A stretch of 64,000 nucleotides of DNA. Source: Chitinophagales bacterium (GTDB lineage Bacteria; Bacteroidota; Bacteroidia; Chitinophagales; Saprospiraceae). The DNA lies in the NCBI GenBank assembly GCA_013298845.1, contig JAAFJN010000008.1:67823-131822 (forward strand). Direction: 5' to 3'. Positions 47,554 through 49,847 of this stretch are shown here, piece after piece. The stretch's first letter is position 1. The number at the start of each line of letters is the position of its first letter. A program made the translations under genes and the position numbers. Under the pieces are notes generated by a model. It was not told the DNA's origin. It searched no databases and saw nothing but the letters and a program-made list of their open reading frames with translations.

Positions 47554-48648
47554 CTACTTCACAAACAACTGCTTCAACTGATCTACCACTTGCCCGCCGC
47601 CGGACAAGGTGATGGTATGGATTTTTTCGGCAATTTTTTCCACGTATTCCATCTCTTTCAATTTCAGCAACATGGTATTGTCTTCCATCAGTTTGGCAGT
47701 GTTCAACAGGCTGCGGGTAGAAGCGGTTTCTTCGCGGCGCATGATGACATTGGCTTGAGCGCGTTTTTCGGCGATCAAAACCTGGTTCATAATGTCTTTC
47801 ACCTCACCCGGCAAAATGATGTCTTTTACCCCAAAATCGGTCAAATCTACCCCCAATTCGGCGGCTTTTACCTTTTCGGCTGCCAAGACCTGTACGGCGA
47901 TCTGCTCTTTGTTTTCCATCAATTCGTCAAAACTCATTTGACCAACAATGGCGCGCAGGGCCATTTGCATCCGAATGTACAATTGCTTGTCGAAGTCTTT
48001 GTTATCCACCAGGGCTTTTACAAGATCAACCACCCGGTACTGCACGGTGAAATTAATGCGCAATTGTGCTTTATCTTTGGTCAACACTTCCTGTCCGGGT
48101 ATATCAATGGCCATTTGACGCATATCGGTTTTAGCAACGACGACCAGATCGCTGTTTTTCCACAAAAAATGGTTACCGGCTCCCAAAGTGCGTACAATGA
48201 CACCGTTCACCATCAGAACACCCTGATCAAAGGATTCCAGGCGGAAAAGGCGGATAAATGGGTTCAACAGCCCCTTTTCCAACAGGTTTTTATCAATATT
48301 GTCGCCAATATACAGGTCATTCAGGTTGGCTTTGACCACATTAAACTGGTCAATTCCTTTCCAGAAGGCAAATTTTCCGGCGCTCAAGACCTGGTTGTAG
48401 TTGCCGTTTTTGTACAACAACCCGATCTCAAAATCGGCAATTTCAACGACATCTAAAAGGGCCGCCAATGCTTCGTGTTGCAACAGCACGTTCAGTTCTT
48501 GCTTGGGCAAAAACCAGTTTTTCATGTTGAATATTTCTACCGTACGACCGAACCCAACCCAGTGTTTACCGGTAGTGAGCACTTGTACCAAATTTTCATT
48601 TTTGAAAACCAACCCTACGTGGTTGTCGGCGATGTTGATGTATTTCAT
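47554..48648 (-). CDS. SPFH/band 7 (stomatin/flotillin-like) domain protein
   Basis: Duplicated SPFH-like segments and coiled-coil C-terminus (AEKRAQANVIMRREETAS). Confidence 0.7.
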   Translation of the reverse strand: MKYINIADNHVGLVFKNENLVQVLTTGKHWVGFGRTVEIFNMKNWFLPKQELNVLLQHEALAALLDVVEIADFEIGLLYKNGNYNQVLSAGKFAFWKGIDQFNVVKANLNDLYIGDNIDKNLLEKGLLNPFIRLFRLESFDQGVLMVNGVIVRTLGAGNHFLWKNSDLVVVAKTDMRQMAIDIPGQEVLTKDKAQLRINFTVQYRVVDLVKALVDNKDFDKQLYIRMQMALRAIVGQMSFDELMENKEQIAVQVLAAEKVKAAELGVDLTDFGVKDIILPGEVKDIMNQVLIAEKRAQANVIMRREETASTRSLLNTAKLMEDNTMLLKLKEMEYVEKIAEKIHTITLSGGGQVVDQLKQLFVK

Positions 48649-48921
48649 TGTATTTTTATTGTTTTAACGTTTTTGAAAAGAACATTGCCCAATCGGCCCA
48701 TTGGCGGCCAACGGAAGCGTTCGGGCCATTCGGCAGGACGCTGATCTTTCAACACCGGAAATTTATCTCCGGTAATTGTCCCTTCAGTGCTGTGCCGAGC
48801 GGATGAAACGCCTGCAAAGTCAATCGTCAATTGCTGCCAAAGCAGCGGAGCCGATGAGCAATGTCCGGCGGGCCATTTGAAAAGTTGCCCTTCTTTTTGA
48901 GAATTGGATCCTAAATCCAGT

Positions 48922-49043
48922 GCATTTACCAATTATGCTATCCGAGCGTGTCGGAGCGGGAGTCGAACCCACGTAACCAATTACAACGTTCTGCCACTGA
49001 ACTATACCACTTTCTTAGAGCGGTAGCGGGAATCGAACCCACG
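48922..49043 (-). ncRNA. two tandem tRNA-like modules with circularly permuted order (T-arm, acceptor-like hairpin, D-arm), Y-RNA(YrlA)-like
   Basis: Minus-strand module X: T-arm GTGGG-TTCGATT-CCCGC (49043-49026), hairpin TACCGCT/CTAAGAA/AGTGGTA, TA, D-arm GTTC-AGTGGCA-GAAC (49002-48988). Module Y: T-arm GTGGG-TTCGACT-CCCGC (48972-48956), hairpin TCCGA/CACGC/TCGGA, TA, D-arm GCAT-AATTGGTAA-ATGC (48938-48922). No pairing consistent with a canonical cloverleaf; 690-bp ORF-free region. Confidence 0.5.
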
Positions 49044-49257
49044 GCCTTTGTATCAAATGGAAACCCAATCTACCCCCCAAAGACTGCATATGCGGACGCA
49101 CGCGGCGCATACAACGGTGCCATACAGAAACACCCGACAAGGCCCCTGGCTTTCAATTGTGTTAGCCCTTTAACGGTCAGGCTTGCCTATCGGTTCCCCA
49201 TTTGGTAAAAATTATTAGAATATGGTGCGTTTTGGATATAAAATTACGCCAAAACAC

Positions 49258-49303
49258 AAACAGCCCCGCTGCTGCCTTGCGGGCAACAGCGGGGCTGTTT
49301 GAC
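49258..49303 (-). terminator. rho-independent terminator of the DUF4252 gene
   Basis: 12-bp stem ACAGCCCCGCTG/CAGCGGGGCTGT followed on the minus strand by TTGTGTTTTGG. Confidence 0.65.
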
Positions 49304-49337: not shown

Positions 49338-49847
49338 TTATGCGCGATCAAATTCAATCGGCATTTTGATTTTTTTGTCGGTTTTGTTGTATTTTTTAAT
49401 GAGTTTGTTGATCTCATTAATTTTAAATTTCCCTTTCAGGCTAATCATAAAAAAGCCGTCTTCGGGGTCATTGACAAAAACAACCACTTTGCGCAGGGCA
49501 TTGCGGCGGTCTTTGGCCAGCACCTGCACCCGGGTTTTACCGTCGCGGATGGTGATAATTTCTTCCAAATGGCGGCGCTTTGCTTTGCGGTTAAATTTGC
49601 GCAAATCGCGTTCGCTCAAAGGGCTGCCGTTTTCGAACACCAACGTGCGCACTTTGTGTACCCGACGGATGAGTTTGCGTTCGTCCTGGTGTTTGGCGAA
49701 CAAAGATCCGGCGCCAATGGCAATGCGCGGAACCGTAAAATTGATACCGCCGTCGTAGTCTTTATACTTCCAGTACAACCATCTGTCCTGTGCCTGTGTG
49801 CCCGTTGCAACGGCTAAAAAAAGCAGAAAAAAAAGGATCTTTTTCAT
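49338..49847 (-). CDS. DUF4252 domain-containing secreted protein
   Basis: About 170 aa with signal peptide; paralogous to the upstream gene; member of a sigma/anti-sigma/DUF4252 cluster typical of Bacteroidetes. Confidence 0.65.
   Translation of the reverse strand: MKKILFFLLFLAVATGTQAQDRWLYWKYKDYDGGINFTVPRIAIGAGSLFAKHQDERKLIRRVHKVRTLVFENGSPLSERDLRKFNRKAKRRHLEEIITIRDGKTRVQVLAKDRRNALRKVVVFVNDPEDGFFMISLKGKFKINEINKLIKKYNKTDKKIKMPIEFDRA

Follow-up and report, generated by a model that had tools for sequence, protein, structure and literature searches.

RtcB repair operons are widespread among bacteria, yet little is known of their substrates and cofactors, and experiments on them are confined to the arm formed by Ro60 and Y RNA. 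An abstract by Burroughs and Aravind is said to name SPFH/Band-7 modules together with "a novel tRNA-like molecule" as potential scaffolding cofactors of RNA repair. The locus described here lies in a 64,000-nucleotide (nt) stretch of the genome of a Chitinophagales bacterium (assembly GCA_013298845.1, contig JAAFJN010000008.1, positions 67,823 to 131,822), referred to below as the window. Directly upstream of a slipin (SPFH/Band-7) gene, it encodes a single conserved, structured noncoding RNA whose central domains, two modules in tandem, are circularly permuted tRNA mimics. Among described molecules this slipin-linked RNA appears to match b7a-tRNA best, which was predicted by Burroughs and Aravind in 2016 and is compared here by the two-sentence, second-hand description of Wang et al. 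(bioRxiv 10.1101/312249). In that summary, b7a-tRNA is a predicted noncoding RNA located in some bacteria beside a Band-7 protein and RtcB; it "strongly resembles an authentic tRNA", occurs occasionally beside Rsr, and was not validated. The wording of the summary suggests that only the tRNA-like segment was recognised there. The term b7a-tRNA was not found in the further papers searched beyond this preprint.

The other close relative is YrlA (RF02553; Chen et al. 2014; PDB 6CU1), a Y RNA with T-arm, loop-closed acceptor stem, and D-arm, in which the "anticodon stem" is formed from flanking strands. Its genes lie in RNA-repair neighbourhoods that include RtcB, and Chen et al. 2014 take a position within 4 kb of rsr as their criterion. 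Transfer-messenger RNA (tmRNA), including its permuted two-piece form, is likewise a larger RNA with pseudoknots that contains a tRNA mimic, in some lineages in permuted order. Mimicry is also known from the operator of E. coli thrS, a short leader that imitates only an anticodon arm and binds a known synthetase. In Anabaena, translation stress induces rtcB and a slipin together with a tRNA array (PMC10272220).

In the window, the order T-arm, loop-closed acceptor stem, UA, and D-arm is read twice along the minus strand between 49042 and 48922 (Table 1). This arrangement had been noticed in a preliminary description of the locus and is recovered by a covariance model of the permuted module built from 25 seeds (model R1), which scores 44.4 bits on module 1 (48987-49042) and 44.7 bits on module 2 (48921-48972), with E of about 5e-12, far more than chance would give. 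The tRNA mimicry considered in that description agrees with the YrlA-type architecture of the modules. Two of its details are revised. The first of the mini-hairpins thought to join the modules is not conserved, and TTGTA (48986-48982) pairs instead with TACAA (49052-49048), as in YrlA. The second is better read as the anticodon-like arm of module 2 (48920-48904).

Automatic tRNA callers miss the modules, as had been expected. No tRNA was found by ARAGORN across the whole 64-kb window, an Rfam scan returned nothing over the modules at the gathering score (GA), and neither tool called two normal tRNAs at this place. Below threshold, the Rfam tRNA model reaches 22.8 bits (GA 29) on the module 2 D-arm, its hairpin, and the following sequence, while YrlA reaches 32.5 bits (E 5.7e-5, GA 69) at 48954-49067, covering module 1 and the start of module 2. 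The tmRNA model gives 17 bits and permuted tmRNA (RF04321) 12.9 bits against a GA of 47. A permuted tmRNA is rejected on this last score, and a canonical tRNA gene on the empty ARAGORN result, the subthreshold Rfam tRNA score, and the native-order calls given below.

Table 1. Features of the window that are discussed in the text (module, pseudoknot, and helix strands are written 5' to 3' on the minus strand).
Feature	Position	Strand	Sequence, basis, or remark
5' domain	49062-49163	-	three-way junction closed by a long imperfect helix; pair counts
P-1 helix	49163-49155 with 49070-49062	-	
P0 helix	49149-49142 with 49084-49077	-	
P1 helix	49136-49131 with 49119-49115	-	conserved 11-nt loop UUUCUGUAUGG
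P2 hairpin	49112-49106 with 49094-49088	-	
Module 1	48982-49052	-	YrlA-like topology; sequence, model R1, covariation
Module 1 anticodon-stem 5' strand	49052-49048	-	TACAA, then variable loop AGGCC
Module 1 T-arm	49042-49026	-	GTGGG-TTCGATT-CCCGC; sequence
Module 1 closed acceptor hairpin	49025-49005	-	7 bp, TACCGCT-CTAAGAA-AGTGGTA, then UA
Module 1 D-arm	49002-48988	-	GTTC-AGTGGCA-GAAC, then G26
Module 1 anticodon-stem 3' strand	48986-48982	-	TTGTA, pairs with TACAA 49052-49048
Module 2	48904-48972	-	complete permuted tRNA shape; model R1, re-permutation
Module 2 T-arm	48972-48956	-	GTGGG-TTCGACT-CCCGC; sequence
Module 2 closed acceptor hairpin	48955-48941	-	5 bp, TCCGA-CACGC-TCGGA, then UA
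Module 2 D-arm	48938-48922	-	GCAT-AATTGGTAA-ATGC, then A26
Module 2 anticodon-like arm	48920-48904	-	CTGGA-TTTAGGA-TCCAA; "anticodon" UAG
H-type pseudoknot	48870-48896	-	A-rich loop 3; per-sequence own-versus-cross test
Pseudoknot S1	48896-48893 with 48884-48881	-	AAAG with CTTT; purine-rich
Pseudoknot S2	48890-48887 with 48873-48870	-	GGGC with GCCC; fully variable in homologues
3' domain	48676-48866	-	about 180 nt, closed by long-range helix P-close; clade alignment, RNAalifold
P-close	48866-48858 with 48688-48680	-	GGACATTGC with GCAATGTTC
U-run	48679-48676	-	right after P-close, about 28 nt before the slipin ATG
Slipin (SPFH/Band-7) gene	47554-48648	-	364 aa; Pfam Band_7 at residues 143-307
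DUF4252 gene	49338-49847	-	upstream of the conserved RNA
DUF4252 operon terminator	49257-49301		perfect 20-bp GC-rich hairpin and U-tract; seen on both strands
rsr (Ro60 orthologue)	62604-63977	-	13.5 kb from the two-module RNA
Third permuted tRNA-like module / YrlA-like RNA	62350-62464	-	just downstream of rsr

Model R1 finds approximately 200 further copies of the module across 98 related loci. In 142 distinct copies, whose alignment is fitted to model R1, 98.6% of the cells are paired against 38-50% in slid controls, compensatory changes occur at 14 of the 15 module pairs, and the covariation score is 0.81 vs 0.24 for shuffles. The loop-closed acceptor helix covaries at all of its positions (6/6), with 98% still paired. 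Covariation in relatives had been proposed as a check of the modules, and the compensatory changes bear them out.

In homologues, the anticodon-like arm has the canonical 5 base pairs (bp) and a 7-nt loop with the pattern Y-U-NNN-R-A. The normal order of a tRNA was restored by opening the acceptor loop in silico and joining the anticodon arm to the 5 nt preceding the T-arm, acceptor stems under 7 bp being padded to 7 bp. This was done for 46 parsed modules with an anticodon arm of their own, namely, module 2 of the window and 45 homologues. ARAGORN called all 46 re-permuted modules tRNA and none of them in native order (0/46), with the limit that the parser pre-selects tRNA-like features. The calls comprise Leu-UAG (12), Asn-GUU (7), Gln-UUG (6), Lys-UUU (3), and others. 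U33 and purine 37 are present in 46/46 of the anticodon-like loops, as the parser demanded, and positions 34-36 vary. Where modules have no arm of their own, an anticodon stem formed from the flanking strands has 5/5 pairs in 55 of 84 homologues, against 0/84 after a 3-nt slide. Only one tRNA call falls inside any of the 98 RNAs. The permuted tRNA reading of the modules is solid. A cryptic functional tRNA matured by RtcB ligation is unlikely in view of the short, tetraloop-capped acceptor stems without discriminator-CCA; these stems are mostly of 5-6 bp and are often capped by GNRA or UUCG tetraloops. When viral contigs were scanned for two T-loops 45-62 nt apart, only dense phage tRNA arrays were returned.

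Rather than two small free-standing RNAs, the modules are internal domains, the middle of one conserved RNA of approximately 490-510 nt that spans about 49163-48676 of the minus strand in the window. All of the retrieved contigs with slipin homologues (60-79% identity) carry a conserved noncoding block of about 500 nt directly upstream of slipin, which reaches far past the tRNA-like units on both flanks. The region had been described as free of open reading frames (ORFs). The gap between DUF4252 and slipin (49338 to 48648) does hold two mechanical ORFs of 86 and 95 aa, which are treated as probably spurious because conservation resides in covarying RNA helices.

On the upstream side of the modules, the 5' domain was assessed by gapless counts in 97 distinct homologues. 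P1 is 94% paired, its variable pair being GC in 47, AU in 19, UA in 15, and CG in 14; the inner pairs of P2 form in 99% and 91% of sequences and occur as 5-7 pair types, and P0 is paired in 72-81% at three positions. By RNAduplex, the 5' flank pairs with the stretch after P2 in every lineage, with a mean of -21.4 kcal/mol vs -16.7 kcal/mol for shuffles.

On the downstream side, the modules are followed by an H-type pseudoknot, which recurs in homologues with unrelated S2 sequences (TGATCA, GGCC, GTGGAA, GAACC, and others) and with a covarying S1 (AGAAG/CUUCU, GAG/CUC, GGAGU/ACUCC). Because the MAFFT alignment lost the register of the helix, the strands of each sequence were compared with cross-paired controls. 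A helix S2 of at least 4 bp is formed by 51 of 51 own sequences vs 60% of the controls, and one of at least 5 bp by 67% vs 23%. A long-range stem closing off the two modules, predicted by RNAfold between CCATTTGA (49060-49053) and TCAAATGG (48880-48873), was rejected, being absent from L122 and other relatives; TCAAATGG belongs to the pseudoknot loop and S2.

The 3' domain contains conserved hairpins and motifs, such as CTTTGCAGG, GCACAGCACTGA, and GCTTCCGTT. Its closing helix P-close shows compensatory changes in the clade alignment analysed with RNAalifold (GGACATATCGG/CCGATATGTTC, AAACACATCG/CGATGTGTTT, GAACGTCGCGGAG/CTCCCGACGTTC). Across the family, the 30 nt after the pseudoknot form a duplex with a site about 420-540 nt from the 5'-domain motif (mean -23.6 vs -17.4 kcal/mol for shuffles), and this distal site usually lies just before a U-rich tail. 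In loci L128 and L171, conservation ends at the U-run and slipin starts hundreds of nt later, so that the U-run is likely the 3' end of the RNA. Other pairings found no covariation, either between the conserved 3' motif GGAUACCG and the P1 loop (GUAU/AUAC) or between a 5' CCUG and the 3' CAGG beside this motif. The 5'-domain sequence CUGAUGAG was considered as a hammerhead core and was rejected, as the needed GAAA is absent and no Rfam ribozyme matched.

The number of modules varies: two in 63 RNAs, one in 31, and three in 1. In the single-module relatives L124 and L127 the module equals module 2 of the window. The last module usually carries the full anticodon stem-loop, and its "anticodon" differs among lineages. 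Two tandem anticodon-like hairpins are present in L145, L152, and L163; in Spirosoma and Larkinella the last module consists of T-arm and acceptor helix only, and the Pedobacter variant has a 5' extension with three small hairpins. The spacers between rtcB, RNA, and slipin are filled in several relatives by short tandem or minisatellite-like repeats such as AACGAATCAACGAAT and GTGAGAGA (L122:1690-1935, L124:1965-2100, L128:2040-2500, and downstream of the U-run in L171).

The distribution of the RNA was surveyed in one genome per species of GTDB with the 5'-domain pattern GTTTCTGNAYRGCNCYNNNGTRT-N16-26-ATATNC. Of 98 loci found among these species representatives, 96 are labelled Bacteroidota and belong to Saprospiraceae, Chitinophagaceae, Pedobacter, many Cytophagales, and some Flavobacteriales. 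The two other labels concern metagenome-assembled genomes (MAGs) assigned to Rickettsiales (L142) and Halioglobus (L144). Both are probably mis-binned contigs, L142 being nearly identical to Marinoscillum L136. In this survey the RNA is specific to Bacteroidota. One or more T-arms are found at the expected distance in all but one of the 98 loci.

In every locus whose sequence extends far enough downstream, the slipin gene follows on the same strand (88/88). The other neighbours in the 98 loci of 8 kb are RtcB in 47, WYL in 50, RlaP in 15, and Rsr in 2. In the closest relatives of the window, the RNA separates rtcB from slipin, and a divergent WYL-WCX regulator gene lies upstream of rtcB; in Pedobacter the order is a divergent WYL gene, the RNA, slipin, two RlaP genes, and rtcB. 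In PADLOC, neither slipin nor RlaP nor RtcB was assigned to a defence system.

In two loci, L175 (a Flammeovirgaceae MAG) and L213 (Emticicia agri 17J42-9), rsr lies directly upstream of the slipin-linked RNA. L175 contains two extra YrlA-like module matches between rsr and the RNA, so that the arm of Ro60 and Y RNA and that of slipin and tRNA-like RNA share one operon. Arrays of 5-14 tRNA genes occur in the 8-kb loci L213, L211, L230, L170, L195, and L223, those of L213 and L223 being on the strand of the RNA according to Rfam. The order in L213 is tRNA array, rsr, tRNA-Asp, RNA, and slipin, which recalls the TrcR regulon of Anabaena with its tRNA array, rtcB, and slipin (PMC10272220).

With regard to transcription, a direct repeat T(G/A)CGCA-N6-8-TGCGCA precedes the RNA in 44/91 loci and is followed after 13-14 nt by TTTG in 38/44. 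It sits about 40-110 nt upstream of the RNA, between the divergent WYL gene and the RNA (L158, L178, L197, L198, L151, and others); the window does not contain it. The repeat with TTTG is likely a WYL operator plus a -7 element or promoter, and on this reading the RNA would be the first transcribed element. The canonical Bacteroidetes -7 box TAnnTTTG shows no positional peak upstream of the RNA. None of 94 loci has this box within the 120 nt preceding slipin, which points to read-through as the probable mode of slipin expression. Counted back from the slipin ATG, the nearest stretch of four or more T lies at a median distance of 31 nt. Ten loci have a canonical tRNA gene whose end is 29-34 nt ahead of the 5'-domain motif and abuts the 5' helix of the RNA (tRNA-Tyr in L136, L137, L142, L149, and L152; tRNA-Pro in L157 and L209; tRNA-Asp in L208, L213, and L228). 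This abutment suggests that the tRNA gene is co-transcribed with the RNA and that the 5' end of the RNA may be made by tRNA processing.

Compared with the systems outlined above, the RNA resembles b7a-tRNA in two respects. It adjoins a Band-7 gene, with 28 nt from U-run to slipin in the window and an invariant association in the relatives. It also resembles tRNA, as indicated by the re-permutation calls and by weak Rfam tRNA matches in RNAs of the family. With regard to an RtcB neighbourhood, the gene is encoded in about half of the relatives' loci and beside the RNA in those closest to the window, none being detected in the window itself. No Rfam model was found for the family in a scan of the window and 18 related loci. 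The possibility of a new structured RNA class, raised initially, stands insofar as the RNA is not in Rfam and is weakened insofar as a Band-7-associated tRNA-like noncoding RNA in RtcB loci had already been predicted according to the bioRxiv summary. The RNA is thus best regarded as a member of a previously predicted, uncatalogued, and unvalidated class, with an anatomy considerably richer than that of "a tRNA-like RNA".

With YrlA the RNA shares the arms and topology of module 1, including the stem from flanking strands, and the neighbourhood of RtcB. It differs in that its score is less than half of the GA with no Ro-binding stem matched, and in that module 1 is followed by a second module without a return strand, which leaves the outer Rfam helix largely unmatched. 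In addition, its partner is slipin rather than rsr, it has about five times the length of YrlA and carries further conserved domains, and its second module has a full anticodon stem-loop, which YrlA lacks. YrlA did not reach GA anywhere in the window, nor in any of 18 related loci. At 13.5 kb from rsr, the RNA falls outside what the YrlA report of Chen et al. covered. From tmRNA it differs by the low scores (only 17 bits, and 13 bits for tmRNA_permuted), by an acceptor stem that is loop-closed and does not end in CCA, and by a genuine D-arm and anticodon arm. Leaders of the thrS type similarly place anticodon-arm mimicry directly upstream of a gene of the tRNA pathway, whereas the slipin-linked RNA mimics whole tRNA bodies and has no known binding partner.

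Given its observed structure, conservation, and gene linkage, the RNA may function as a tRNA-mimicking cofactor or regulator of a slipin-RtcB repair module. The explanation we favour overall, with a confidence slightly better than even, is that of a b7a-tRNA-like, tRNA-mimicking RNA partner of slipin in an RtcB-centred module for repair and translation stress. Transcription would start at a WYL-controlled promoter with the RNA leading the operon, except in the clade of the window, where the RNA follows rtcB, and termination at the P-close helix and U-run would be at least partial. The RNA might then act as the RNA subunit of a slipin ribonucleoprotein, comparable to YrlA in association with the Ro60 ring. 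In this model it would be anchored by its 5' and 3' domains, and its tRNA-shaped modules would expose elbows of T-loop and D-loop along with an anticodon loop. Under tRNA damage and translation stress, the modules could thus recruit or occupy factors that recognise tRNA, be it RtcB, RlaP, modification enzymes, or anticodon nucleases. Stomatin-family entries of the PDB, to which a sequence search relates the slipin of the window as a stomatin-like protein, hold 16 to 26 chains each, and this fits slipin as a multimeric scaffold.

Several points weigh against this explanation. By tblastn, no RtcB or WYL gene was detected in the 64-kb window. Here RNA and slipin form an isolated pair, preceded by an unrelated DUF4252 operon with its terminator. 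The binding of slipin to the RNA is a proposal, and the strict same-strand position at a short spacer upstream of slipin is equally expected of a cis-acting leader. The pseudoknot and P-close are supported by our own scripts rather than by R-scape; the transcript ends are placed by predicted structure, only approximately so for the 5' end in the window, and the identity with b7a-tRNA rests on two sentences written by others.

The main rival is accordingly a cis-acting leader of the slipin(-rlaP-rtcB) transcript, which is possible but doubtful and could coexist with a ribonucleoprotein role. Here the tRNA-shaped domains would be a mimicry operator with attenuation at P-close and the U-run: a tRNA-binding product of the operon, or factors that bind intact tRNA, would occupy the mimic and promote P-close together with the U-run, whereas damaged tRNAs would titrate the factor and permit read-through into slipin and rtcB. 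The position of the RNA directly upstream of slipin in all 88 loci fits such a leader, as do the resemblance of P-close and U-run to an intrinsic terminator, the short distance from the last T-run to the slipin ATG with P-close directly before the U-rich tail, the absence of a -7 box between RNA and slipin, and the location of the sole recognisable promoter or operator upstream of the RNA; anticodon-arm mimicry has its precedent in thrS. However, known attenuators are far smaller than this RNA, which measures about 500 nt and has three to four domains that close independently, and L128 and L171 keep the RNA across hundreds of nt of repeats between U-run and slipin. In the clade of the window the RNA lies downstream of rtcB, which excludes cis regulation of rtcB there, and the analogous YrlA acts in trans. 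Regulation and mimicry might also be combined in a multi-domain riboregulator or sentinel coupling tRNA integrity to the slipin-RtcB module through lineage-specific tRNA replicas, the P-close/U-run terminator, or a WYL ligand, a reading that we consider fairly improbable. The replicas would be interchangeable, each a tRNA body with a genuine anticodon loop, and the factors acting on damaged tRNAs would also read, bind, or cut them. This event would set the formation of the terminator, hence the expression of slipin and rtcB, or would produce the WYL ligand.

A decoy for tRNA-targeting toxins is an unlikely explanation. Modules with an anticodon loop would bait anticodon nucleases, either soaking them up or releasing a cut fragment with a 2',3'-cyclic phosphate that signals to WYL, and RtcB would reseal the RNA. 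The complete anticodon arm with U33 and purine 37 (parser-required, 46/46) and variable "anticodons" (UAG, GUU, UUG, UUU, and others) would suit a bait, as would the tandem anticodon-like hairpins of L145, L152, and L163 and the co-location with RtcB and a ligand-sensing WYL regulator; the idea of a competitive inhibitor has been published for YrlA. Conversely, module 1 never has an anticodon arm, the last module is without one in about one-third of the module-bearing RNAs in some lineages (Spirosoma, Larkinella), and Salmonella YrlA is not cleaved by the SOS-induced anticodon nuclease; the invariant link to slipin and the large flanking domains would be left unexplained. A YrlA-type Y RNA working with Rsr, the partner proposed in the preliminary description, is highly improbable, even though module 1 has exactly the YrlA topology and holds the best subthreshold Rfam YrlA match (32.5 bits), and rsr is present in the window and just upstream of the RNA in L175 and L213. 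The match stays below half of the GA with the Ro-binding outer stem unmatched, no family locus among the 18 reaches GA, and the rsr of the window, 13.5 kb away, has its own adjacent YrlA-like RNA (62350-62464). Moreover, rsr neighbours the RNA in 2/98 loci, while slipin is the partner in 88/88. Practically negligible is a decayed pair of tandem tRNA genes or a chance arrangement of tRNA fragments, a kind of false positive in YrlA searches of which Chen et al. 2014 warned. A T-arm followed by a D-arm does resemble a tRNA-tRNA junction, and canonical tRNA genes or arrays lie upstream of the RNA in some loci. Yet the acceptor strands pair within the module, 3' strand first and capped by short loops, this closed helix covaries at 6/6 positions with 98% paired, the spacing from D-arm 1 to T-arm 2 is too short for an anticodon arm and variable loop, and both arrangement and flanking domains are conserved across several Bacteroidota orders.

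The locus provides a sequence-defined description of the second arm of the RtcB system, composed of slipin and a tRNA-like RNA. It comprises an RNA of about 500 nt outside Rfam, with 1-3 permuted tRNA mimics, an anticodon loop, a pseudoknot, two further domains, and a promoter that is likely WYL-controlled. The RNA occurs in at least 98 species-level genomes, with cultivable carriers in Pedobacter, Chitinophaga, Spirosoma, Emticicia, and Fulvivirga. Questions thereby made testable are the role of slipin in RNA repair, why repair systems keep tRNA mimics, and the sensing of tRNA damage outside the RtcR/CARF paradigm. If the sentinel reading were true, the RNA would be a new type of RNA-based damage sensor made of permuted tRNAs. 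Annotation pipelines overlook this large conserved RNA and sometimes emit weak tRNA calls within it.

The first 150 residues of the slipin of the window have no Pfam domain and no obvious transmembrane helix, and they resemble three beta-hairpin repeats (GxxxxNGxxxxxLxxGKHxxW-like) placed before the stomatin core. This repeat-like N-terminus without an obvious transmembrane helix suggests that the protein is soluble, and not a membrane-anchored SPFH protein. On the other side of the RNA, the hairpin of the DUF4252 terminator gives rise to spurious subthreshold Rfam matches (F6, RefA9, STnc150). The module beside rsr is scored at 38 bits by model R1 (62380-62436) and at 21 bits by Rfam YrlA, under the Rfam threshold, and is presumptively the YrlA of the window genome. 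It is followed by two genes, LMWPc-like (61845-62213) and HD-domain (61359-61823), which are both small.

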